A stretch of DNA of 37,277 nucleotides. It comes from a virus. Lineage: Duplodnaviria; Caudoviricetes. Shown here in pieces: positions 738 to 35,346 of the stretch. Each line of letters begins with the position of its first letter. The stretch's first letter is position 1. The notes beneath the pieces are model-generated. The model had not been told where the DNA came from and searched no databases. It saw only the letters and a list, made by a program, of their open reading frames with translations. The position numbers were made by a program, and so were the translations under genes. The stretch lies in IMG/VR virus record IMGVR_UViG_3300027896_000117, positions 1-37,277 of that record; one strand, 5' to 3'.

Positions 738-817
738 GATAAATAGTTGTGAGTCGCGGAAGCCCAATTCCCACTCACTCTAATGCTATGAAGGAGCAAT
801 CAGCATGACTACTTATT
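738..817 (+). promoter_or_regulatory. Conserved structured element, copy 1 (late promoter, two hairpins, antisense late-promoter box) upstream of HNH gene
   Basis: GATAAATA 738-745; stem GTGAGT 749-754 / ACTCAC 773-778 enclosing GGAA/TTCC; TCTAA; TGCT/AGCA hairpin over the GGAG SD; ATCAGCATG; homologous to 20754-20834. Confidence 0.75.
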
Positions 818-1503
818 CAAAAAACAGAACACCCAGCAAAATTTATCGTAAAATTTACGAAGATTACTATGGGCCAATCCCAATAGATGCTGATGGAAAA
901 TCCTATGAAATTCATCATATAGACGGCAATCATAAAAATAACGACCCATCTAATTTAATCGCAGTATCTGCACAAGAACATTATGATATTCATTATTCCC
1001 AAGGCGATTGGGGAGCTTGCTGGTTAATGGCAGAAAGACTGAAGTTGTCATCAAAAGAAATATCAGAATTGGCACGATTGGCGGCGAATAGAAGAGTAGA
1101 AAATGGAACTCACAACTTCCAAGATTCGGAGTTCCAGAGAGAAAAAGCACTGAGAATGGTCCGTGAAGGGACAAATGTTTTTGTTGGCGGCGAAATTCAA
1201 CGCCAACACAATAGACGCAGAGTAAATGATGGTTCACACCATTTACTCAAACGTCCCGATGGAACAAGTCACTCATCAGATAGAGTTAATGCAGGAACCC
1301 ATAATTTTCAAGACAGCAAGTCTCAGCAGGAAAGAGCATTGAAAAGGGTTAAAAATAAAACTCACAATTTTCAAAAAAGAGAAGGATATGAACATCCTTC
1401 AACGTCCGAAAAATGGTATTGCCATACTTGCAAAAAAGAAGGAAAGAATGCGGGAAGTAGAGGTAGATACCACAAAGGACATGAGGTTACTATAATTAAC
1501 TAG
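805..1503 (+). CDS. HNH homing endonuclease with repeated C-terminal motifs
   Basis: EIHHIDGNHKNNDPSNLIAVSAQEH HNH motif; about five RVxxGTHNF-like repeats; terminal CHTC knuckle; AAGGAG SD. Confidence 0.88.
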   Translation: MTTYSKNRTPSKIYRKIYEDYYGPIPIDADGKSYEIHHIDGNHKNNDPSNLIAVSAQEHYDIHYSQGDWGACWLMAERLKLSSKEISELARLAANRRVENGTHNFQDSEFQREKALRMVREGTNVFVGGEIQRQHNRRRVNDGSHHLLKRPDGTSHSSDRVNAGTHNFQDSKSQQERALKRVKNKTHNFQKREGYEHPSTSEKWYCHTCKKEGKNAGSRGRYHKGHEVTIIN

Positions 1504-15013: not shown

Positions 15014-15706
15014 TCACTTGATATCTAGTGGACGAGCCTTTGTTGCTACGACACAAAAATACTTTTCCGAAACTGTTCTTGGTTCTTCTTGACCTTCTTG
15101 AGGAATTCCAATATCAAATTCAAGATTGTTGAACTTATCAATATTGAACCCAGTACGAACAAGCAATGCTGCCAACTGATTGGCACCAAGAATGCTGTAG
15201 TGATTTGGATTGTATTCGTGACCGCGTTCGCAGTCCGGGGCAGGAACTTCGATGTAAATCTTAGAACCCTGCTTTAGTACACGGTTGTATTCCATCAAAG
15301 TGAAAATAGGATACGGAGAATGTTCTAGAGATTGACGGGCAAAAATGAAGTCCACTGATTCATCATAGTAACCTTCCTGCTGCGGAAGGAACGACATATC
15401 ATATGTCTTGGTCGTATGACCTTTTTCTTGACATGCGTTGATATCTTCAGGACTCAGGGTGATACCGACAAGATCAGTGTATCCAAGTTCCTTCATTGAA
15501 TCTAAGAAATATCCTACGCCACATCCCATATCAAGAATCTTAGCGTCTTTTGGAAGCTCCATTGGTTCAATGTAGGTTTCTACTACCTGCTCAGTGAGCT
15601 TCTTATGGAATTCACTTGGACCCTCATCATAGATGTGGGCAGTATAAAGCCATTCATTGTAAAAGCGAAGTTTAATAATATCCAGTGTTTGATTAATATC
15701 TATCAT
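15014..15706 (-). CDS. Class I SAM-dependent methyltransferase
   Basis: KILDMGCGVG motif I, SVDFIFARQSLEH, RVLKQGSKIYIEVP. Confidence 0.9.
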   Translation of the reverse strand: MIDINQTLDIIKLRFYNEWLYTAHIYDEGPSEFHKKLTEQVVETYIEPMELPKDAKILDMGCGVGYFLDSMKELGYTDLVGITLSPEDINACQEKGHTTKTYDMSFLPQQEGYYDESVDFIFARQSLEHSPYPIFTLMEYNRVLKQGSKIYIEVPAPDCERGHEYNPNHYSILGANQLAALLVRTGFNIDKFNNLEFDIGIPQEGQEEPRTVSEKYFCVVATKARPLDIK

Positions 15707-16323
15707 ATATTTTCTTTCTTAAATTTGCAGTTATCGAAATGCCATCTTTTCATAATGCCTTCTCCGCCTTCTGCACCGCAATGTGGACAGGATGCTTTTT
15801 TCTTTGGTTTTCGGTTAGCTAAGCTATTTTTTAACTTCCATTCATCTGATTGTGTTTTGCCAAAATTTGGATTTTTCTCACCAGTGCGGGCACGGTTGCT
15901 ATTACTAAGATCAGGTCTAGGAACGCCGCGCTTAGGTGCAATGCGTTTTTCTATATGCTCCGGAGACTGCGGACCCAAAGAATGCCTAGGTCCTCTCATT
16001 TTTTCAATAGATTTCGGCGTGTGTGGTATTCCGGTCCTAACCGGAGAACGGTCATTGTTATGTTGATTAAAACTATTTTCATCATGCTTAGCATTAGCAT
16101 CTTGCAATAACTTAGTTTCTAAATCTCTCATTTCCAATGGATTGCCTGTTGCAAGTATTTCACGTTTCCATTCTTTGGGATTTGCAATAATGAGAGGCTT
16201 AACTATTTTACTAGAACAGTAATATCCATCATCTGGATGGGAACCAACTCGGGTCCTAGAACCAATATACCATTTGCCAGTAGGTATATGAACCCACTTG
16301 TATACATAAGCCACCGTTTCCAT
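15703..16323 (-). CDS. GIY-YIG homing endonuclease (Seg-like, NUMOD3-type repeats)
   Basis: YVYKW...WYIGSR; HTPKSIEKM, QSPEHIEKR, GEKNPNFGKTQSDEWK; terminal CPHC...KRWHFDNCK. Confidence 0.88.
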   Translation of the reverse strand: METVAYVYKWVHIPTGKWYIGSRTRVGSHPDDGYYCSSKIVKPLIIANPKEWKREILATGNPLEMRDLETKLLQDANAKHDENSFNQHNNDRSPVRTGIPHTPKSIEKMRGPRHSLGPQSPEHIEKRIAPKRGVPRPDLSNSNRARTGEKNPNFGKTQSDEWKLKNSLANRKPKKKASCPHCGAEGGEGIMKRWHFDNCKFKKENI

Positions 16324-20708: not shown

Positions 20709-20753
20709 AGACTATTATATAGCACTTTCTGTAGTCATTTTCAAATAAAAAGG

Positions 20754-20834
20754 TATAAATAAAAGTGTAGTTCGCGGAGGTGAGATTCCCAACTACTCTA
20801 ACACTGTTCGGAGTATCAGCAATGAATATTTATT
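20754..20834 (+). promoter_or_regulatory. Conserved structured element, copy 2, upstream of GIY-YIG gene
   Basis: TATAAATA 20754-20761; GTAGTT 20767-72 / AACTAC 20791-96 stem; CGCGGA..TTCCC; TCTAA; GGAG; ATCAGCAATG; homologous to 738-817. Confidence 0.75.
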
Positions 20835-21529
20835 ACCTAATGGTCAAGACCCACAATATCACCGGTCTAAAATACCTGTGCCAAACTAAGAAAAAAGACC
20901 CATACAAATACTTAGGATCAGGTAAATATTGGAAATTACATTTAAAAGAACACGGCAATGATATTAGTACCGAAATTCTAAAAGAATGCTACACCAAAGA
21001 TAATCTAATAATCTGGGGAAAATACTACAGCGATCTTTGGAATGTAACTGAAAGCAATGCCTGGGCAAACTTGAAACCTGAGACCGGCGATGGCGGTCCG
21101 CTATTCGGGGCAGCAAACGGAATGTTTGGTAAATCTAGACCTAGGCATATCATGGAAAAAGCATGGGAAGCATCCTCTAAAGCAATCAAGGGGAAAACAC
21201 TTGAAGATAGGTATGGTGTTGAAACGGCTGCTAGAATGCGGGAAATCCGAAGAATAAACACAGCTAATGCAATGCAAAATGATCCGGAGTGGGTAACCCG
21301 ATTGCTGAAATGTGCCAATTCTCCGGAAGCCATAGAGAAACGCAGCGGTAAAAATCATACCAGATATGACCACACTATATATACTTGGCATCATACAAAA
21401 ACTGATACAACTGTTCTGATGACTAGAAGTGAGTTCAGCAAGGCACATGAATTACCCAGTTCAAATATTTCAAACCTTATTAACGGAAAACACAAGCACT
21501 GCAAAGGTTGGTCAATAATCAAGACTTAA
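20822..21529 (+). CDS. GIY-YIG-family homing endonuclease (start revised to MNIYY)
   Basis: IYYLMVK...KYLCQT, YLGSG, WANLKPETGDGG, NGMFGK and terminal HTH-like SNISNLING...KGW; lies antisense between dfr and thyA. Confidence 0.82.
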   Translation: MNIYYLMVKTHNITGLKYLCQTKKKDPYKYLGSGKYWKLHLKEHGNDISTEILKECYTKDNLIIWGKYYSDLWNVTESNAWANLKPETGDGGPLFGAANGMFGKSRPRHIMEKAWEASSKAIKGKTLEDRYGVETAARMREIRRINTANAMQNDPEWVTRLLKCANSPEAIEKRSGKNHTRYDHTIYTWHHTKTDTTVLMTRSEFSKAHELPSSNISNLINGKHKHCKGWSIIKT

Positions 21530-23808: not shown

Positions 23809-24070
23809 GGTCTTTAATCAATAAGTACAGCGTTTCTAGCTTCTCTAGAGCATCACGGAGAGTTGGATTAGTCTCTGCAAGTCGAATGATACGCATCATT
23901 CGCTGAGAGCGTATAGCGAGTTCCTGTTGCTTAAGCACTTCTGGATCTTCCCAATAAAGTTCACGAGTTAGAGAATCAAAAGATCGCTTGTAAATTGTTT
24001 TGCCCCCGTCAGGTGATTCGAAAATCACCCGACGAGAAGCATCTACTTGCATTATTTCATTCTTAGCCAT
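23792..24070 (-). CDS. Hypothetical phage protein
   Basis: IFESPDGGKTIYKR motif; TAATG coupling to upstream gene. Confidence 0.75.
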   Translation of the reverse strand: MAKNEIMQVDASRRVIFESPDGGKTIYKRSFDSLTRELYWEDPEVLKQQELAIRSQRMMRIIRLAETNPTLRDALEKLETLYLLIKDHEENN

Positions 24071-25371
24071 TACTTGCGGTGATCGTCATAGATCGCCCAA
24101 GCACCGAAAGGGGGATTCGGATCGGGGTCGCCGTGAATGATCCAAGTAGTATCACAGTAGTCAGCATCACCCCATGAACCGAAGGGATAACCGTCAGTGA
24201 AAACGATCAGACGTTCGGGTACGATTGCTTCTTCCTTGAGAAAGTTGAAGATGCAATCAAAGTCAGTACCACCACCACCGTGAATTTGATATTCATCAAC
24301 AGTGTCGAGGTTCTCAGAAGTGAACTCCTGCAAGTTGTACACCCGAGTATCGAAGCAAGCGACACGAATGCGGAACCCGTCAAACGCTTCCATCATACCA
24401 GCGACTTCGCTCAGGAACGCCTGACCCTGCTTCATCGAAATAGAACCCGACATGTCGATCATCACAACAACGTCGATTTCTTCACCAGGATTCATACCGG
24501 GCATGACAGCATCCATGTGCCAACCGCGACGAGAAGGACGCATCCAGCTATAGTCAGACTTGATAGCAGAGGTCAGATTAGTCTGGAGCAGTTCGCGCCA
24601 GGGCATGACAGGATCAGTGAGTTGCTTGATCATGCGTTCAACGCCCTTCGGAATCGAACCAGCTTCGGCAGTCGAAGCAGCGTTCAGAATAGCCTGCTTG
24701 ACTTCCTGACGAATCTGCTCCTTCTCAGCCTCAGACAGTTGAGGACGACCCTTGCCCTTACGACCTTCGCCATCCTTACCATCTTCGCCTTCACCTTCGC
24801 TATCACCATCACCGTCGATGTGATCGTCCAGCATCTTGTCCAGAAGGTCTTGAACATTGATGTACTGAACGTTCTTCATGAGGTCATCATAGATAGCCTC
24901 AGCAGCCCAGTTTTCATACTTGGCTTCATACAAGCAAGGAACAGTAGTGATGAACTCACCGACCTTGTGACGCTTCAAGTCAGCGTTAACAGCGTAGTCA
25001 TCAGCGATGTTCCAGATTTCAGGATCACGATTGTCACGACGACCAAGATGATCGTACACAACGTGCAGCACCTCGTGACCAACGAGGAATTCGACTTCCT
25101 TCGTCTTGAGCATGTTGATGAAACGCGAGTTGTAATAGAAACGCTGACCGTCAGTTGCAGCAGTAGTCAGCCATTCGTCAGCATTGACAAGCGTGAGACG
25201 AGTAGCAAGATTGCCGAAGAACGAATGGCGAAGCAGAAGACCGATACGAGCAGTGACCAGACGTTCACGAGCAATGTGATCGACCTTCGGATCAGTCGGA
25301 CCCACAAGATTTTCGAACTTCTTGCTGCGCGAACGCTTCGACTTCTTAGGGGCAGTAGTATTGGTAGTCAT
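24070..25371 (-). CDS. HEXXH metallopeptidase-like + vWA domain protein (DUF2201-like)
   Basis: TAATDG, HEVLH, WNIADDYAVN; MIDAS DMSGS, GGGGTDF, FTDGY. Confidence 0.88.
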   Translation of the reverse strand: MTTNTTAPKKSKRSRSKKFENLVGPTDPKVDHIARERLVTARIGLLLRHSFFGNLATRLTLVNADEWLTTAATDGQRFYYNSRFINMLKTKEVEFLVGHEVLHVVYDHLGRRDNRDPEIWNIADDYAVNADLKRHKVGEFITTVPCLYEAKYENWAAEAIYDDLMKNVQYINVQDLLDKMLDDHIDGDGDSEGEGEDGKDGEGRKGKGRPQLSEAEKEQIRQEVKQAILNAASTAEAGSIPKGVERMIKQLTDPVMPWRELLQTNLTSAIKSDYSWMRPSRRGWHMDAVMPGMNPGEEIDVVVMIDMSGSISMKQGQAFLSEVAGMMEAFDGFRIRVACFDTRVYNLQEFTSENLDTVDEYQIHGGGGTDFDCIFNFLKEEAIVPERLIVFTDGYPFGSWGDADYCDTTWIIHGDPDPNPPFGAWAIYDDHRK

Positions 25372-25400
25372 CGTAGATGCCTTTCTTTGTTTGTGTAGCG

Positions 25401-25429
25401 ATCTTAGCGCGGGTTTGCGCTAATGTCAA
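25401..25429 (-). promoter_or_regulatory. Sigma70-type promoter
   Basis: TTGACA, 17 nt, TAAGAT within GCTAAGATC. Confidence 0.7.
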
Positions 25430-25430
25430 C

Positions 25431-25538
25431 TCAAAAAATGATTTTTTCTAAGGCCCATAAAATAAACTTTCCCAGAGCAGCACCCAAAAGGCCTCCGGAA
25501 ATGATGAGGGCAACAGTGATTAGTAGCGTCAGTAGCAT
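25431..25538 (-). CDS. Putative 35-aa membrane peptide (not in ORF track)
   Basis: Hand translation MLLTLLITVALIISGGLLGAALGKFILWALEKIIF; fills the gap between AAA and vWA genes. Confidence 0.5.
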   Translation of the reverse strand: MLLTLLITVALIISGGLLGAALGKFILWALEKIIF

Positions 25539-25550
25539 AATTAATATCCC

Positions 25551-25584
25551 AAAGAAAATGGGGAGGGCTGTCTAGACCCTCCCC
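25551..25584 (-). terminator. Intrinsic terminator after AAA gene
   Basis: GGGGAGGG-TCTAGACAG-CCCTCCCC then ATTTTCTTT. Confidence 0.85.
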
Positions 25585-25602
25585 TTAGGAGCTGCAACTG
25601 CC

Positions 25603-26700
25603 TCAGTTGCCTGCTTCCACGATGTACTTGCCGTACTTCTTGTGGAACTCATCGAAGTTGCTCAACTGAGAAGGCTCAATCGGCAGCTTGTAAGTCTTGA
25701 GAGCGATCTTCGCACCCATCACGACCAACTCCGTTTCGAAGTTCTTCATGATGTACTCGAAGAAGTTGTCAGCCATTTCGTGGAACTTCTTGTTGTCAGC
25801 AGTCTTGTTCTGCAATGCGTCACGCAGTTCGTAGCACATCGAAATCGTCAGCGAGTACATCGCAGAGATTTCCTTGACCTGAAGGTCCTTGACCTTACCC
25901 GAGAGAATGTCAGCGGGGTTCGGCATGCGACCAGCAACCTTGCGGTGCGCCATGAACTTCGTAGCGAGACCATCACCGATCGAACCTGCAACGAGATTGA
26001 ACAGCGTGTCGTTGTCAACATCTTCATCGTTCAGCAGGTCGCTGACGAAGCACCACGAACGCGGAGTAGCGAAAGCACGAGACGAAGACTTAGCTTCGAA
26101 ATCGTAACCATCCTGCTTCGAGAACGAAAGATAACCAACAACGTCCTTGTGAATGCCCTTGTTAACAGCCCACTGCTGCCAAGCGTTGAAGTCGTAGCGC
26201 ATTTCGATGTGAACGAAACGATTAGCAAGCGGCATCGGCATACGATACGTAACGCCCTTGTCGCTGTCGCGGTTACCAGCAGCGACGATCACAACGTTGT
26301 CGGGCAGCTTGTACTTGCCGATACGACGATTGAGAATAAGCTGATAACCAGCAGCCTGAACAGCGGGCGGAGCCGAGTTCATTTCGTCAAGAAAGAGAAC
26401 GACGATCGGATAGTTCTTGCAGACTTCTTCGCTCGGCAGATCGACGGGTTCAGCCCAATCCATCTTGCTGATTTCCTTGTTGAAGAAGGGGATACCGCGA
26501 ACGTCAGTCGGTTCCATCTGCGCCATACGCATATCGTACATGTAACCACCGAGTTCGTCAGCGATTTCCTGAACGACTTCCGACTTGCCGATGCCCGGAG
26601 GGCCCCAGAGGAAGACGGGACGCTTTGCCTTGAACGCGGTGAGCAGTGCCTTACGGGCCTGAATCGAGGTAACAGTGAGAGTGTCAGATACTTGAGACAT
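25603..26700 (-). CDS. MoxR-type AAA+ ATPase
   Basis: GPPGIGKS, LFLDEMN, AAGNR, PLANRF, TPRSW; TAAGGAG SD; TTGACT-17-TATACG promoter at 26794-26766. Confidence 0.92.
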   Translation of the reverse strand: MSQVSDTLTVTSIQARKALLTAFKAKRPVFLWGPPGIGKSEVVQEIADELGGYMYDMRMAQMEPTDVRGIPFFNKEISKMDWAEPVDLPSEEVCKNYPIVVLFLDEMNSAPPAVQAAGYQLILNRRIGKYKLPDNVVIVAAGNRDSDKGVTYRMPMPLANRFVHIEMRYDFNAWQQWAVNKGIHKDVVGYLSFSKQDGYDFEAKSSSRAFATPRSWCFVSDLLNDEDVDNDTLFNLVAGSIGDGLATKFMAHRKVAGRMPNPADILSGKVKDLQVKEISAMYSLTISMCYELRDALQNKTADNKKFHEMADNFFEYIMKNFETELVVMGAKIALKTYKLPIEPSQLSNFDEFHKKYGKYIVEAGN

Positions 26701-27137: not shown

Positions 27138-30100
27138 TTATTTTTTGTAAAAATGATGGATGTCTTCATCGTCATCGTATTTGACAACTAGGTTGCCTAG
27201 CGTAAAGTCATCCCCGTGTTCTTCAACTATTCTAGCAAATTCACTCACACTACCAAAGATGTCATCTACTACATCGTCTTCGGTGCAGTTCCCTAGATAT
27301 TCTAATGACGAAGATTCTTTCATCAGTCTAGGATCGTCTGGACTAAAGGATCCGCGATTGTGAATAGACTTTACTTGATTAGGATTGAATACGACCCAAA
27401 CTTCACCCGACTTAGCGTTGCTATCATTAGGAATTGATTCGTTGATGATAGCTCCGTCGAAGCCTAGCTTCTGTAGGTTCTCGACAAACTCTGCGCCTTC
27501 TGGCCCATCAAACAGTTCCCAGCGTTGATCTTCGTACATATGATTGTAGATTGAGTTTAGATCAATGTCATGAGCCTTAAACTCCTCTTTGGTTTCTTCG
27601 TCGCTCAACATTCTTGATAGTGCGTTGTCACGCAAATCAATTGGATATTGGATGGAAAGATGTACAGGAATAACTCTAGCGCCCGGCTTTAATTCTCCAG
27701 TGGCTGGACTCTCAACAAAGATTTCTGCAAACTTTGGGTCTACTGCAAAGAAGGAACCGTGACGCTCAACATCAAATGTCATGCCCAATACACTTGATGC
27801 ACCCCTCCCGTGAATGTTAAACTTGTCAAAGTCTTTGGTAGTGGCGTGATAGAATATTTGGGGCTTGCCGTTTATAACGCCCCATGACTTAGCTAGCCAA
27901 TTGCTTAAACGCTTTTCTCTGTGCTGCTCATCATAGCCCGGGAAGAGTTCTTGTTGTTCTTCTGCTAGGAATGATTGCCATTCTTTCATCAGGTTCTCAG
28001 CGATCTTACCGTTTGGGTTTGCCTGAGGAGGGATGCCCGCGCGTGAGACTTTGGACCCAAGCCTTTTTGCGTTGTCTTTAATGGAATCTGGCTTGACATC
28101 TACAGTGAGTGCGGTCTTGAAGCGAGGATCGTTCTTTTCTTTTGCTGATGGAATGTAACCTGAGGCTTCTAAAATCTGATAGTCATGATCTCCACTCAAT
28201 GCACGATCAACATAGTCATCAGAAACCTGTCTGATAAGGTCAACTTTAACCCCATGATGTTTAGCTAGAGATAGTATTTCTTTTTTCAATGCAGGATCTT
28301 TGTAAATTGCAGTTAGGCTCAATTGTTCAAAACCCTGCTCACTCCAATCTTGGTATAGAGGAATGACTCCTTTAAGTTTCTTCAAATCTTTATACAATGC
28401 CCTCTGTGCATCTAAAGATGTTCCCGGAACTTGAGAGTTTACACACACAAACTCAATCTCGTTATACCCTGAGGCTTCATTTACAGTCTCAATCTCATCA
28501 TCAGAGACGATCTGTGCAGGAATTGTTTTTTTCTTTAATAGTTTATATGCGTAGAAACGATGATGACCATCTAACACTTGATAGCCGTTCTTATACTTGC
28601 GAACTAAAATAGGAGGAATGTTTTCGCCTTTACTTAGCCCTTGTAGTATCTTCCTTACATTTGCCTTTGCTTTTTCTTGGTTCATCTTTGAGTCTGGTTC
28701 ATACGAAACAAGTTTATCCAAAGGAATGTTTGTTGTGGGTAGATTTTTCAAATTTGTGTCGTCTACCTCAGCACCGAAATAGTTAGGGTCTGTATAGAGT
28801 TTGACTGAGGCTTCTGATAGTGAGGATTGGGGACCGCGATACATCTTACCCGCCCCCATAGCGTAGTCTAAACTTCTACCCTTGTTTTCTTTGAATCCTA
28901 AACTTTTATAAAACCTCACTAACCTAGCTCGTGAAGTCGTTCCATGAGTTTTGTTTTCTAGACCAGGAGTCAGTATGATTCGTTTACCAGTGCTGTCTGC
29001 ATATTTTATAAGTTCTTGCATGGCTTTGGTTCCTAGACCTTTGCCCTGATTTTCTTTTCCCACGATCAGTGAATCCAGTACAAGATCATCACCTCTCGGA
29101 GTTACAATAAATTGCTTGAGATTAAACTGAGACTTGATCTTATCTGCTATGTCATCTTGTCCTGAGTCTTCTAGCATCAACTCGTTTGACACTGAAATTC
29201 TATCGGGACTGATCGCAGTTTTTGCGATTTTTTCATATCCGGCATTACTGTCAACTAGGGGCAATCCTGATACATCAATGGCTAGTAGTGTCAAGTCTTC
29301 ATCTTCATCAAACTCGTCACCTAACCAGTTTGAAACTGCATCTTCCACATCGTCTAATGTAGGAAACAAAAAGATACCATTCTCTTCGCCATGCAGTTTA
29401 GCTGATCGGTCTCCTATTTGTGGTCTCAATCCGTTCTTCATGATAGAACGAAGATTTTTGGTAGGAGTAACGTGATACATGATATCCTGTTCAGCGGACT
29501 CGTCAATATATGGAAGACGAATATTCTTGTAGCGTTCAGGATCGTATGGCTTGATTTCTGCTGGTTTCTTAGGCTTTGGACCTCTCCAACCACGTTCCCA
29601 TGCTGCTGCACCTTTTCGTGCTGCTAGGTTCACATCCTCGCCGCGATATTTTGCTGACCTGACAAAGTGATCAATCACTTGCTGTTTGGTAGTGTATGAT
29701 TCCAATAAGTCATCCTGACTCCAGTAAGCATCACTGTTGTATTTTCTGTATTTTTCAAAATTTATTTTTGCGTTATTGCTTCTTTTTAGGATTCTTACCT
29801 GCGACGGATCGGTAATGATATACGAGGTTGAGCCCGGATCTTCAATGTCGTTAGTATAACGCAAGGTGTCTATGGCATAAACCTTTAGGATATTCAACAA
29901 AATTTTATCCGCTGCGGGGCCGGATTCCTTTGGCACTGCATCGCGGTCTTCTTTACTAATAATGTTTCTTCTACAGAGAGATTTTGCGATATCCCATGCA
30001 GTATGCGTGTTCGTATCATCTATGTCAACTACGTTGCCCAGTCTCAGTCTAGCAGCTAGTGCATTAAAAACGTTATCTTTTTTTGGTTTACCGTATTCAT

Positions 30101-31217
30101 AATCTGTTGCCAATGCAAAAGCTCTAGCACCTGCTGCCTTTTTAGTGCCGAAATGACTTAGTGGATTAAATTCTGAAAATTTATGAGGAGTTACATGATG
30201 CACCACTTCGGACTCGTCATCATCTGCGCGGCCATACATGGATTCCTCAGCAAAGATGCCATGCTTGAAGCGTTCCCATTCATCTTTCATTGCAGCAGCA
30301 GCCATTTGCTTCTCATAAGCGGCTTTAGCCAGCTTAGATTTGAATGGATCAACCGGTTGATGACGACCGATTTCTTCTGGTTTGATATTGTATTGCTTCA
30401 TCATTTTTTCAATGATGCGCGTGATGCTTTCAATCTCGGATGGAGTTCTACCTGTAGTGTTTTGTAGCTTTTTGATTTTTAGCAGTGCATCATCGCGGGT
30501 GCCTGCCTCTTCGATGCTCAGTGCCTGACTATGCAGCTTGTCACTTAGATCATATAGCTTGTCTATTCCGCCCTGTGTTCTAATAGCCTTATAAGCAAGA
30601 TTCTCTGGGCTGAACTCTCCGCCCTTTGATAGGCCCGCTTGGCGGTAACGTTTGATTAGCTTAAGGACATCATCGACTCTTTTTAGGTCCTTAGTTTTCA
30701 TGGTTAGACCAACCAGGTCTGCCAGCTTCTCATATTTTGCTCTGGTTGCATTTTGGTCAAAGTTTGCTCTACGCTTGATGGGATGCTTGATCCAGCGGTC
30801 ATGTAAAATACTGTACTCACCCAGAGACACGACTGGTAAATTGGAATCTTGCACATATACTTCTACCGGAACACCATGAACGGTAATGTCGTGGGCATCG
30901 TTGTATAGAGTTTTCTTTGCTTTGAACAGTTCCTGATAAACTTCATTATCAGGAAGTTTGGACATGTCCACTACAATGTGAAGGTCAAGATCACTGTGAG
31001 GAGTGTATGAATATGCTGCGTTAGAGCCGGAGACAGTGACATTTTCTACGTTGACATCCTTAATACCGAGTTCTGAGATAAAATCTTCTGCTACATCTAG
31101 AAGATGATTTCTAACCTTTGGGTCCAGTTTATTGTCTACCCAAAGCTTCGGGTTAAGTTTGTCGTGAAACTTTACCGCGTCAGATAGTTTAAATGAATGA
31201 AGTTCTTTGATGTCCAT
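27138..31217 (-). CDS. Polyvalent multi-enzyme protein: pol-beta-type nucleotidyltransferase, DUF2786-like helices, three ADP-ribosyltransferase-like domains, GNAT, ParB/Srx-like
   Basis: SGSNAAY...SDLDLH; HHVT...SHFGT...SYIITDPSQV; MYHVTPTKNLRSIMKNGL; QGKGLGT...FYKSLGF; PPILV...LDGHHR; FYHAT...GSFFA...GFDGAI...VVFNPNQVKS; GATAAATA at 31229-31222. Confidence 0.85.
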   Translation of the reverse strand: MDIKELHSFKLSDAVKFHDKLNPKLWVDNKLDPKVRNHLLDVAEDFISELGIKDVNVENVTVSGSNAAYSYTPHSDLDLHIVVDMSKLPDNEVYQELFKAKKTLYNDAHDITVHGVPVEVYVQDSNLPVVSLGEYSILHDRWIKHPIKRRANFDQNATRAKYEKLADLVGLTMKTKDLKRVDDVLKLIKRYRQAGLSKGGEFSPENLAYKAIRTQGGIDKLYDLSDKLHSQALSIEEAGTRDDALLKIKKLQNTTGRTPSEIESITRIIEKMMKQYNIKPEEIGRHQPVDPFKSKLAKAAYEKQMAAAAMKDEWERFKHGIFAEESMYGRADDDESEVVHHVTPHKFSEFNPLSHFGTKKAAGARAFALATDYEYGKPKKDNVFNALAARLRLGNVVDIDDTNTHTAWDIAKSLCRRNIISKEDRDAVPKESGPAADKILLNILKVYAIDTLRYTNDIEDPGSTSYIITDPSQVRILKRSNNAKINFEKYRKYNSDAYWSQDDLLESYTTKQQVIDHFVRSAKYRGEDVNLAARKGAAAWERGWRGPKPKKPAEIKPYDPERYKNIRLPYIDESAEQDIMYHVTPTKNLRSIMKNGLRPQIGDRSAKLHGEENGIFLFPTLDDVEDAVSNWLGDEFDEDEDLTLLAIDVSGLPLVDSNAGYEKIAKTAISPDRISVSNELMLEDSGQDDIADKIKSQFNLKQFIVTPRGDDLVLDSLIVGKENQGKGLGTKAMQELIKYADSTGKRIILTPGLENKTHGTTSRARLVRFYKSLGFKENKGRSLDYAMGAGKMYRGPQSSLSEASVKLYTDPNYFGAEVDDTNLKNLPTTNIPLDKLVSYEPDSKMNQEKAKANVRKILQGLSKGENIPPILVRKYKNGYQVLDGHHRFYAYKLLKKKTIPAQIVSDDEIETVNEASGYNEIEFVCVNSQVPGTSLDAQRALYKDLKKLKGVIPLYQDWSEQGFEQLSLTAIYKDPALKKEILSLAKHHGVKVDLIRQVSDDYVDRALSGDHDYQILEASGYIPSAKEKNDPRFKTALTVDVKPDSIKDNAKRLGSKVSRAGIPPQANPNGKIAENLMKEWQSFLAEEQQELFPGYDEQHREKRLSNWLAKSWGVINGKPQIFYHATTKDFDKFNIHGRGASSVLGMTFDVERHGSFFAVDPKFAEIFVESPATGELKPGARVIPVHLSIQYPIDLRDNALSRMLSDEETKEEFKAHDIDLNSIYNHMYEDQRWELFDGPEGAEFVENLQKLGFDGAIINESIPNDSNAKSGEVWVVFNPNQVKSIHNRGSFSPDDPRLMKESSSLEYLGNCTEDDVVDDIFGSVSEFARIVEEHGDDFTLGNLVVKYDDDEDIHHFYKK

Positions 31218-31964: not shown

Positions 31965-32318
31965 GAAAAGATGCCGGATTCTGTTGATAGGCTCCGGCTG
32001 GCCCCGGTAAATCATGCCGCTGCTAGGGCAATATCCATAGTTGAGTTATCGTTTGCAGATAATTCTATTTAGTCTATAATGCGACTAACCAACCAGTCTA
32101 GGCTTTCCTATTCCGTGACAATCGATCCTAGTTCAGGCCCATCAACTACGTCGGGCTGGGTAGAGTAATGCCGGGCTAATGCCGGAAACCCATCGGACAG
32201 GCGCGCTTTCCTGTTCCCGCTTATAGTGCCGAATCGAGACCCGGCGTAGATGGTGGACCTGCCGGGTACCGCCCCCGGGTCTTGTCTACCTTTATTGTCT
32301 GCTTTCAACCAACTGATA
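31965..32318 (-). ncRNA. ssrA: Circularly permuted two-piece tmRNA (alphaproteobacterial type)
   Basis: Acceptor piece ends GACCCGGGGGCGGTACCCGGCAGGTCCACCA (CCA end at 32251); coding piece starts GGGCCTG at 32140 and pairs with CAGGTCC including G3-U70; tag ANDNSTMDIALAAA* at 32056-32012; terminal GCCGGA-GCCTATCAACAGAA-TCCGGC hairpin; outer ends approximate. Confidence 0.93.
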
Positions 32319-32321
32319 CTG

Positions 32322-32352
32322 TACTTATACATGATTCACGGAAACATGTCAA
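32322..32352 (-). promoter_or_regulatory. tmRNA promoter (overlapping sigma70-type and late-type)
   Basis: TTGACA 32352-32347, 17 nt, TATAAG; the same bases read TATAAGTA, a late-box variant. Confidence 0.65.
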
Positions 32353-32354
32353 GC

Positions 32355-32798
32355 TTAATATGTAATTCTTCTTGCTGAGAGTTTCTGATTAGAACAATCG
32401 TTGTTATTCGCTGACTTTTTACCATGACACAGCTTACAAAACGTAGTCACGTTTTCAGGAGTGTTATTGAAATGGTCACCGTCAGTATGTTCCAAATCCA
32501 AAGCATTTAACATGTTCAAGTCGGTCCAGGCCTTTTTCTGTACCGGACACTGCCAGCCCAATCTGCCGTCAATGTTTTCACAGTAGTTCTTCTTATGAAT
32601 CGTGATACCTGCCATTGCTGGACCGAAGTAACCAGTAATTCTTGCCTTATAACAGGTACCACATTCAGACTTGATAGACCAGTTTTTCCAGTCTCGAACC
32701 ATCACTGGTCTATTACAGCCTGGATTCACGCACTTAGGTAATTGATGGCCTTCAACGAAGAATCTTTCTTTCGCCACTAAGCCGGGATTAAGTTTCAT
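32355..32798 (-). CDS. Zn-binding HNH endonuclease-like protein
   Basis: CVNPGC, CGTC; LDLEHTDGDHFNNTPENVTTFCKLCH. Confidence 0.8.
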   Translation of the reverse strand: MKLNPGLVAKERFFVEGHQLPKCVNPGCNRPVMVRDWKNWSIKSECGTCYKARITGYFGPAMAGITIHKKNYCENIDGRLGWQCPVQKKAWTDLNMLNALDLEHTDGDHFNNTPENVTTFCKLCHGKKSANNNDCSNQKLSARRITY

Positions 32799-33898: not shown

Positions 33899-35095
33899 TC
33901 AATTGGAACGGTTTCGCGTGTCACCGTAGTGAACAATAGGGCCTAAATGCTGTTCAGCAGTAATTCGGCGCCAAGGATCAACTACAGTACAACGATCAGG
34001 GAAACGTAGATTATCTACATACTGTTCCCAATACCCGATCAAATACACATCCGTAACATCCTGTCTGAGGTCAATGTCACCGGTATGAATGTCATAATAA
34101 TGAACTGTGCCGCCATGATGCTCGACATAATGTCCAACTAGCATACTGGAACTACCATTCGTGTAGTGAACCCCTGGTTTGTAAGCCTTACCGACGATGG
34201 TAACGTTCTTTCCGTATTCAAGACACTTGAGAGCCATATTTTCTGCCTGAACTTCTCTTGCTCGCATGATTGCATCGAACAAGTCGTATCCAAGACCCAA
34301 ACGTTCAGCCATGTAGCGTAGAGCAATGTTGTCTCTAGGATGGCAAGCACCACCGTCACCCATACCAGCAGTCATGTAAGCTGGACCAGTGATACGATAA
34401 TTTGAACGTGCAAGGGCGCCGGTCACTACATCAACGTTCATGTTTCCATTCTTTTCAGCAACGTCCTGAATCATGTTGACAATGCCAACCTTTGCTGAAA
34501 TGAAAGTATTGTAGAAAATCTTGATGGCTTCTGCCTCGTCCCATGTACCAACTTCATAGCGAGGATCATTTTGCATGAATACCTTATAGAAGTCGATTAG
34601 CTCAGCAGCATCACCTGTAATAGAGCCATCTTCCGTACCAATGATCACCATTTCAGGATTAGCCATGTCCCACTTGATTGTACCCATCGCAATGAGATAC
34701 GGGTTGTAGATGAATCGTGCATTGGTGATGCATGGACGCAAATGACTACGAACAGTTCCCGGAAGCACTGTACTAATGAGTACAACCAACTGGTCTTGGT
34801 TTACCCACTTGTTAACTTCTGTAAGAATGTCCATGACAATAGTGTAGTCAAAGTCCTGATTAGGTAGATGACTCGTGGGAGTCTCGCCACCGTAAACAGG
34901 TGCATGTGGAGTTGGAGCTGCAATAAAGATAATATCTCTATCTGATACTGCATCTTGGATTGTATCTCGCATCGGAAACGCAGGAGTTCGTGGCTCAACA
35001 TCGTATCCTACAACGTCATAATATTGCGCCATAACTTCGGCACAGTCTTGTCCAAGCTTACCGACACCAATCATGGCTACCTTTTTGTTAGTCAT
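33899..35095 (-). CDS. UDP-glucose/GDP-mannose dehydrogenase family protein
   Basis: IGVGKLG, AAPTP, ISTVLPGT, EAIKIFYN, GDGGACHPRD, GKAYKP. Confidence 0.9.
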   Translation of the reverse strand: MTNKKVAMIGVGKLGQDCAEVMAQYYDVVGYDVEPRTPAFPMRDTIQDAVSDRDIIFIAAPTPHAPVYGGETPTSHLPNQDFDYTIVMDILTEVNKWVNQDQLVVLISTVLPGTVRSHLRPCITNARFIYNPYLIAMGTIKWDMANPEMVIIGTEDGSITGDAAELIDFYKVFMQNDPRYEVGTWDEAEAIKIFYNTFISAKVGIVNMIQDVAEKNGNMNVDVVTGALARSNYRITGPAYMTAGMGDGGACHPRDNIALRYMAERLGLGYDLFDAIMRAREVQAENMALKCLEYGKNVTIVGKAYKPGVHYTNGSSSMLVGHYVEHHGGTVHYYDIHTGDIDLRQDVTDVYLIGYWEQYVDNLRFPDRCTVVDPWRRITAEQHLGPIVHYGDTRNRSN

Positions 35096-35097
35096 TA

Positions 35098-35346
35098 TCA
35101 TTCCTCAATTTTTTCTGGTCTACTGACTTTATATGTTCTTACATTGGTAAGAATATCTTTTAACTTAATTTCAATGCTGTGGTCATCCGTATCCAATGTA
35201 ACCTGTGCGTCTGCATTGGGACCAAACACTCTAAGAAGATCATCCATAATAGCGTCACACAGTTCCTGTGACATTTCTTCAAATAGATATTTGGTGATGA
35301 TCGCATTTGCAGCGGCATCCATTTGTTCGTGCATGTCAAATGCCAT
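35098..35346 (-). CDS. Hypothetical protein
   Basis: 82-aa ORF, AAGGA SD, in operon. Confidence 0.7.
   Translation of the reverse strand: MAFDMHEQMDAAANAIITKYLFEEMSQELCDAIMDDLLRVFGPNADAQVTLDTDDHSIEIKLKDILTNVRTYKVSRPEKIEE

Follow-up and report, generated by a model that had tools for sequence, protein, structure and literature searches.

A portable leader cassette of phage homing-endonuclease genes that likely encodes a short antisense RNA

An ~80-bp cassette ahead of phage homing-endonuclease genes likely makes a ~65-nt cis-antisense RNA, which would pair with the leader of the nuclease mRNA and block its ribosome-binding site. The cassette is a family of sequences with covariation, a bias of pairing towards the antisense strand, a characteristic box spacing, a U-rich tail and a link to nucleases, and these traits suggest that such an RNA would be transcribed, would pair and would repress. 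Two copies lie in the window, that is, the whole stretch of DNA analysed: 37,277 nt of the Caudoviricetes record IMGVR_UViG_3300027896_000117, to which all coordinates refer. The window derives from a T4-like jumbo phage, and its terminase shares ~50% identity with the Phosso, PA5oct and Atu_ph07 terminases.

The two look-alike leaders had been described in an earlier note on this DNA, and their sequences and positions (738-817; 20754-20834) were re-read as quoted there. The note was right about the shared leader architecture, although it overlooked the late boxes on the opposite strand and the strand bias of the pairing. The features of the two copies and their genes are as follows.

738-745, plus strand: late-promoter box GATAAATA of copy 1, for the nuclease mRNA; predicted start 751
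740-748, minus strand: U-rich tail after P2, copy 1; predicted 3' end of the antisense strand, weak in this copy
740-804, minus strand: predicted ~65-nt antisense RNA of copy 1, start G804, as placed by box spacing
749-778, minus strand: hairpin P2, copy 1; 6 bp, bulged G755, 1 bp, bulged G757, 4 bp, 6-nt loop 762-767
780-803, minus strand: hairpin P1, copy 1; anti-Shine-Dalgarno within and adjoining the loop
793-796, plus strand: Shine-Dalgarno (SD) GGAG, copy 1
805-1503, plus strand: HNH homing-endonuclease gene, 232 aa, HNH_3 (Pfam, E 5e-11), against its neighbours' direction
810-815, minus strand: antisense late box of copy 1, variant TAAGTA, within codons 2-4
20754-20761, plus strand: late-promoter box TATAAATA of copy 2; predicted start G20767
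20756-20766, minus strand: U-rich tail after P2, copy 2, on the antisense strand
20756-20821, minus strand: predicted ~66-nt antisense RNA of copy 2
20767-20796, minus strand: hairpin P2, copy 2; bulged G20773 and G20775, loop 20780-20785
20798-20819, minus strand: hairpin P1, copy 2
20810-20813, plus strand: Shine-Dalgarno GGAG, copy 2
20822-21529, plus strand: SegE-like GIY-YIG homing-endonuclease gene, 235 aa, between thymidylate synthase (TS) and DHFR genes and opposite to both
20827-20832, minus strand: antisense late box TAAATA of copy 2, within codons 2-4

The pattern CGCGGA-N5-9-TTCCC-N4-7-CTCTAA matches the window at 755-783 and 20773-20801 only, and there were no matches in 100 dinucleotide shuffles of the window. 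The outer stem keeps 6/6 pairing despite its change of sequence (GTGAGT/ACTCAC, 749-778; GTAGTT/AACTAC, 20767-20796), as had been noted. A covariance model built from 88 copies, both window copies among them, found no third copy in the window, in agreement with the statement that the nucleases at 15703 and 32355 are without the element. The folding energy of each copy alone is weak (z -0.9 to -2.1); support comes from the family. Directly behind each cassette, sigma-70-like -35/-10 boxes that point away were seen by eye on the minus strand (~700-730 and ~20714-20743); both were unscored by consensus scans.

The two nucleases have no significant protein similarity (best E 0.066), as had been claimed, and both class assignments hold. 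ORF 805 is an HNH nuclease by its HNH_3 match, and ORF 20822 is of GIY-YIG type from SegE_GIY-YIG matches in 4/17 relatives (best E 0.001) and from the protein atlas. The ORF 20822 protein on its own had no match in Pfam, PHROG or PDB, and its family used as query found nothing in PDB. Elsewhere in the window, on the minus strand, are a permuted alphaproteobacterial-type tmRNA gene (31970-32356, 91 bits), the type of which hints at an alphaproteobacterial host and which abuts the HNH-like ORF 32355-32798; a 1,359-aa polyvalent protein with GNAT, ParB-like and ART-PolyVal domains (27138-31217); a MoxR-type AAA ATPase adjoining a vWA/metallopeptidase (DUF2201) gene (24070-26700); a UDP-glucose/GDP-mannose dehydrogenase (33899-35101); and a SAM methyltransferase (15014-15706).

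A complete relative of 360,683 bp (G001), in which copy 1 is nearly letter-identical, has 13 cassettes; in 12 the nuclease ORF that follows is intact, and in one it is broken. It encodes a gp55-like late sigma, and TAAATA stands ahead of 78/281 of its other genes vs 6.6 expected, making this the gene-leading motif of the group; the variant TAAGTA is ahead of 14/281 vs 3.2 expected. A similar late motif, ATAAATA, has been proposed for jumbo phage CBB, according to PMC5259590.

Further homologs exist: at least 2,000 matches are estimated in stored viral contigs and metagenomes. Four pattern scans gave at least 123, 125, 127 and 121 loci, with collection-wide estimates of about 330, 4,600, 2,200 and 2,200, respectively. 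A structure descriptor was passed in 63/125 loci of the second scan, and the hairpin is present in 111/120 unique matches of the third and 116/116 of the fourth. An ORF of at least 60 aa follows 214/225 unique elements, 192 of these ORFs falling into six clusters, and 7/225 elements head short, closed ORFs. With Pfam, which was applied to 90/145 cassette ORFs, 25 are HNH, 8 GIY-YIG/SegE, 16 have NUMOD3 or I-TevI DNA-binding motifs only, one is PD-(D/E)XK-like (MTES_1575, below cut-off), 4 are unrelated and 36 have no match, many of the latter starting with GIY-like motifs by eye. Tabulated in this way, the downstream genes include HNH, GIY-YIG and PD-(D/E)XK-like ones. Some cassettes (e.g. L123, L145, L185, L302, L349) have ORFs in singleton clusters, with N-termini that match no nuclease cluster; three such ORFs put through Pfam (L145 and L185 among them) gave at most one NUMOD3 match, and these ORFs may be DNA-binding-only relics. 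In two cassettes, L296 and G001:C1:90217-90298, the ORF stops after 4 or 30 codons with structure and sense box intact, the inner box being kept in the G001 copy only.

Among cultured phages, a covariance-model search of 15 genomes found one strong copy each in Variovorax phage V45v66 (62 bits), Rhizobium phage RHph_I1_18 (49; MN988519.1:80289-80372) and Pseudoalteromonas phage XG4 (46). All three head a GIY-YIG-like ORF inverted relative to its neighbours, and all three carriers encode a late sigma. The model found no copy in the five cultured jumbo phages with the nearest terminases (Phosso, PA5oct, Atu_ph07, GAP32, Vibrio 2.275.O) and none at a useful score in seven further cultured phages. 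In blastn of copy 2 against cultured phages there were three weak partial matches, among them SH-Ab 15599, which fails the model. A cellular origin of the element was rejected: 185,579 GTDB genomes gave 18 pattern matches; the model upheld 12 of these, every one on a MAG contig (<4 kb in 8 cases) that is probably a binned phage piece.

The earlier note did not recognise the element as a named family, and Rfam 15 agrees: neither copy reaches the gathering threshold of any family (E at best 1.7 and 6.4, to unrelated families). A literature search, with most subscription journals outside its coverage, found no description of the element, and its sequence words occurred in print in unrelated animal papers only, as judged from the listing. 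The cassette may be one of the unnamed structured RNAs predicted from IMG/VR by Fremin et al. 2023 (PMC10690425 supplements), since DNAVirus_8080, DNAVirus_8377 and DNAVirus_1290 are likewise 79-105 nt long and ahead of HNH and GIY-YIG genes; these have just 15-88 sequences each, and the comparison is by description.

The hairpins covary. In the antisense alignment, compensatory changes are found in 14/19 pairs, several with four or five pair types, and 97% of cells pair vs 81% when shuffled and 35-42% in slid controls, although relatedness inflates these covariation counts and the substitution counts that follow, so that they overstate independent events. The non-Watson-Crick positions of the P2 stem, read on the gene strand, are A·C in 53 cases vs G·T in 1 (201 distinct P2 hairpins), and separate counts gave 31:0, and 25:0 where 102/116 elements were new. 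A·C on the gene strand is G·U on the opposite strand; this bias tells strand, not RNA from DNA. The exception is the fourth inner-stem pair, beside the P2 loop, where G·T 11 vs A·C 3 favours the sense strand and counts against the antisense-RNA reading. In predicted folds, 210/217 elements have the P1 base paired on the antisense strand and 5/217 on the mRNA, and where the search pattern left this base free, compensatory variants were found (TCTAT/ACAG, TCTAG/CCAG, TTTAA/TCAAC). On this sequence evidence the conserved hairpins probably fit the strand opposite the gene. The earlier interpretation thus stands in seeing a portable structured element, and a small ncRNA was one of the forms it proposed, while its choice of the sense strand as the structured one is probably wrong.

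The structured region lies between facing late boxes. In the first scan, with neither box in the pattern, TAAATA was found upstream in 95/101 elements and TATTTA in the first codons in 93/101; in other sets TATTTA follows CAGC in 86/111, and in 84 of 114 with a further 10 having TACTTA. The inner box is 5 nt from CAGC in 115/142 elements and occurs in all three reading frames, and this fixed distance in all frames indicates that it is conserved as DNA. None of 281 other G001 genes has TATTTA in its first 20 nt. The inner box may have originated from the Ile-Tyr codons of the GIY motif. The T4 late box starts at -13, according to PMC2988020, placing +1 five bases past the box, and this spacing puts the two predicted starts at either end of the structured region. 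The predicted sense start is the first G of P2 (5-nt spacer) in 101/141 elements and 1-2 nt inside P2 in 35/141. At the level of sequence, the opposing box is placed so that the predicted RNA would cover the SD. Counting against the antisense-RNA reading, two of the three cultured carriers (V45v66 and XG4) have no antisense box at the usual place, and copy 1 has the variant TAAGTA; the third cultured carrier has a one-mismatch box at the usual place and a perfect box 7 nt on.

After P2, at least 5 U in 8 nt are found on the antisense strand in 216/225 elements, and the spacer composition is A290:T65 vs A73:T88 at other late promoters. The U-run is in part the complement of the sense box, yet several copies without a sense box retain it. 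A consensus terminator scan scored neither window copy, which counts against the antisense-RNA reading: the stem is bulged, and the tail starts after 2-3 non-U bases. A basal helix between TAAATA and TATTTA was tried and rejected, as flanking complementarity is at chance in 4/5 tests (82/134 vs 80.3); the exception is one inner position (31 vs 22.9, p 0.025 uncorrected).

The cassette is portable. One and the same P2 hairpin can precede genes of as many as five nuclease families, which supports the proposed portability with interchangeable nucleases. It also implies that there is no guide segment, and an RNA-guided (OMEGA-like) nuclease module found no support, the cargos moreover belonging to three folds. 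Among 11 locus pairs with the same upstream flank, the nuclease is of another family or missing in 5 (one locus trio accounts for three of these pairs), the family is shared but the leader differs in 2, and the ORF is the same in 4. Between the window and G001, three slots differ in the presence or kind of nuclease. One slot has a co-oriented, cassette-less nuclease in the window (15703-16323) and an inverted, cassette-bearing HNH at G001:C1:61594-62262; the TS-DHFR slot has cassette and GIY-YIG in the window vs an unrelated 333-aa ORF in G001. In G001, 8/13 genes with a cassette are inverted vs 1/7 without (Fisher p 0.07; the count omits three further endonuclease-like ORFs), and across the family 61/92 scored loci have an upstream neighbour that runs the other way (crude ORF calls).

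This orientation bias is what would be expected if the antisense fold acted in longer opposite-strand transcripts, as a terminator, or as a signal for processing or stability, where host-operon transcription reads through an inverted nuclease gene, with the inner late box restoring late transcription of the next phage gene and nuclease repression as a by-product. Both cultured copies without an antisense box are inverted in their operons, as this explanation would have it, and T4 homing genes contain embedded promoters for host genes, according to PMC2988022. However, 31/92 loci and 5/13 G001 copies are co-oriented, where such a promoter is useless to the host gene; a promoter ~65 nt ahead of a terminator-like tail gives a small RNA, not an mRNA; and sigma-70-like boxes were seen by eye directly behind the cassette in several loci. 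The read-through explanation is considered unlikely.

A short antisense RNA is also suggested by the P2 loop. It is 6 nt long in 185/225 elements, with a GC content of 56-60% vs 37% in the flanks, and both of its central bases are G/C in 156/201. The commonest loop pair, UUGGCG/CGCCAA, is found in 30/127 stem backgrounds, with the UUGGCG side on the mRNA in 14 and on the antisense strand in 18 backgrounds. In all, 10 inverted loop pairs were found vs 0.44 expected, and such free inversion of the loop sequence suits two complementary RNAs. YUNR was found in the 47 distinct loops 13 times on the sense and 11 times on the antisense strand, and on either strand in only 20 vs 12.1 by shuffling, which weighs somewhat against the antisense-RNA reading.

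In Rfam alignments, CGCCAA is found in CopA of R100 and UUGGCG in the ColIb-P9 repZ leader, that is, the commonest loop of the cassette. Like CopA of R1/R100 (RF00042; target CopT) and the Inc RNA of ColIb-P9 (RF01087; target repZ), the predicted antisense RNA has a small 5' hairpin and a bulged 3' hairpin with a U-rich tail, and as in the CopA and Inc targets the ribosome-binding region is 3' of the kissing hairpin. In having a GC-rich loop of 6 nt and bulges close to it in the stem, the cassette is CopA-like. According to PMC10798244, central loop bases initiate the CopA-CopT kiss, and PMC3753616 and PMC10724649 describe interior loops as required for fast binding in plasmid antisense systems. 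The differences are that CopA is 92 nt with ~8 bases between hairpins, whereas the cassette RNA would be ~65 nt with one base between; that the cassette has phage late boxes and a homing-nuclease target where CopA and Inc target a replication initiator; and that CopT has a U-turn on the target loop (PMC10798244), whereas loop orientation in the cassette is free, which counts against the antisense-RNA reading. The RF00042 model does not match either copy, though the same model detects the real CopA in R100.

It is decidedly unlikely that this likeness extends to a universal socket, in which an independently arisen CopA-like kissing-loop regulator would have had nucleases of three folds swapped at one site, and loop variants would act as incompatibility groups, with a resident antisense RNA silencing an incoming matching nuclease in co-infection. 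The loops of G001 gave no significant sign of diversifying selection (11 distinct loops among 12 parsed vs 9.6 expected, p 0.26), and a founder effect could also lie behind the common loop.

An antisense-strand RNA might also be made whose job is a specific fold that either cleaves itself or binds a protein, which could be the nuclease or some factor of phage or host. Where the pattern left the bulge-bearing triplet free, it is C-R-C in 59/61 parses, the other two being off-register, and a G, an A and a G-C at the helix junction are nearly invariant across diverged stems. The fixed 5' G, the inter-hairpin A and both bulged Gs count against the antisense-RNA reading, in that such fixed bases exceed the needs of a pure cis-antisense RNA (an argument as in PMC5737381). 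A specific fold is nonetheless quite improbable in the face of cargo proteins of three unrelated folds, loops that vary and invert, and the absence of an Rfam ribozyme or riboswitch match at both copies.

Very improbable is a sense-strand cis switch in the mRNA leader that hides the SD, of the T4 I-TevI kind that the earlier note had put forward. P2 also forms on the mRNA, the SD 4-mer has a mean of 0.51 unpaired in the predicted late mRNA and is mostly paired in copy 2, and the same GIY-YIG family uses sense hairpins in cyanophages. The stem changes, however, are G·U-tolerant on the antisense strand, yielding A·C on the mRNA, where the P1 base is also rarely formed. Since the late start is at the foot of the first hairpin, late transcription would leave the hairpin uncut and would not bypass the structure, unlike in I-TevI, and inverted genes get no early sense read-through that would need silencing. 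The cyanophage relatives (L437, L438 and L444, from S-SRM01, B3 and Sf-CH5) have a long sense hairpin with the late box inside, of I-TevI type, and no cassette; they carry the annotation 'translation initiation factor 2'.

Least probable of these is a single-stranded DNA hairpin of attC or REP type, with extrahelical G, through which a recombinase would move nuclease genes: G·T wobble favours the same strand in DNA (98/144) and one site with one P2 can have different nuclease families (L013/L071/L120; L289/L362), but P1 changes with the ORF in 5/7 pairs, with the break past the start codon in 2, the differing breakpoints are as ordinary recombination would give, and promoter spacing and U-tail indicate RNA.

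Under the preferred antisense-RNA reading, the phage late sigma would fire both facing boxes. The sense RNA would start at the foot of P2 and the antisense RNA at the G of GCUGA; the latter would fold into P1 and P2 and would have its 3' end at the U-rich tail, directly or after trimming. The two RNAs would kiss through their complementary 6-nt P2 loops, with the two bulges letting the stem open, and pairing would then extend through P1, the loop of which holds the anti-SD, and across the SD. As both promoters are late, nuclease synthesis would be damped rather than timed, and collisions between converging polymerases may add to the damping. Because the cassette would supply promoter, SD, start codon and brake together, the nuclease gene could sit either way round, and ORFs could be exchanged by recombination within the shared core. 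The cassette is most likely an autonomous expression unit that carries an antisense brake of its own.

Among known systems, RNA-OUT of IS10, described in PMC5006887 as a ~69-nt trans-acting RNA that overlaps 35 nt of one transposase mRNA, is similar in covering, from the opposite strand, the point where translation begins for an enzyme that the mobile element itself encodes, as is predicted for the cassette. It differs in that the cassette RNA would overlap the whole leader and serves many unrelated nucleases, and there is no sequence match. By analogy, the cassette would work like RNA-OUT, and its architecture is close to that of CopA, but it is a member of neither family; a trans-acting antisense RNA of the RNA-OUT kind could count copies. 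The T4 I-TevI, I-TevII, I-TevIII and segB genes and Aeh1 mobE have a late promoter and an SD-hiding mRNA hairpin, according to PMC2988022, and 'fractured gene' hairpins at homing-endonuclease genes are reported from GOS in PMC2677866. These T-even hairpin systems share with the cassette a late TATAAATA box and hairpins at homing-endonuclease gene starts; however, theirs is an mRNA hairpin, and in many cases the promoter lies within it, which lets late transcripts escape the fold, whereas in the cassette facing boxes flank the structure and the other strand is favoured. CfrI of the T4-like cyanophage S-PM2 is an experimentally seen antisense RNA opposite a homing-endonuclease gene, according to the review PMC2984593, but is ~225 nt long and tied to psbA; the likeness is by description.

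The cultured carriers and the 65-nt size of the RNA make the antisense idea directly testable. That the phage cassette and plasmid copy-control RNAs have a loop in common suggests that they converged on a single way of recognising RNA, and if the universal socket were true there would be RNA-based immunity to homing. The cassette would explain how one jumbo phage can hold 13 such genes in both orientations. The control of homing endonucleases, as described in PMC2988022, consists of promoter choice, autorepression and sense-strand hairpins, and an antisense cassette shared by unrelated nuclease folds would add a further layer of control.
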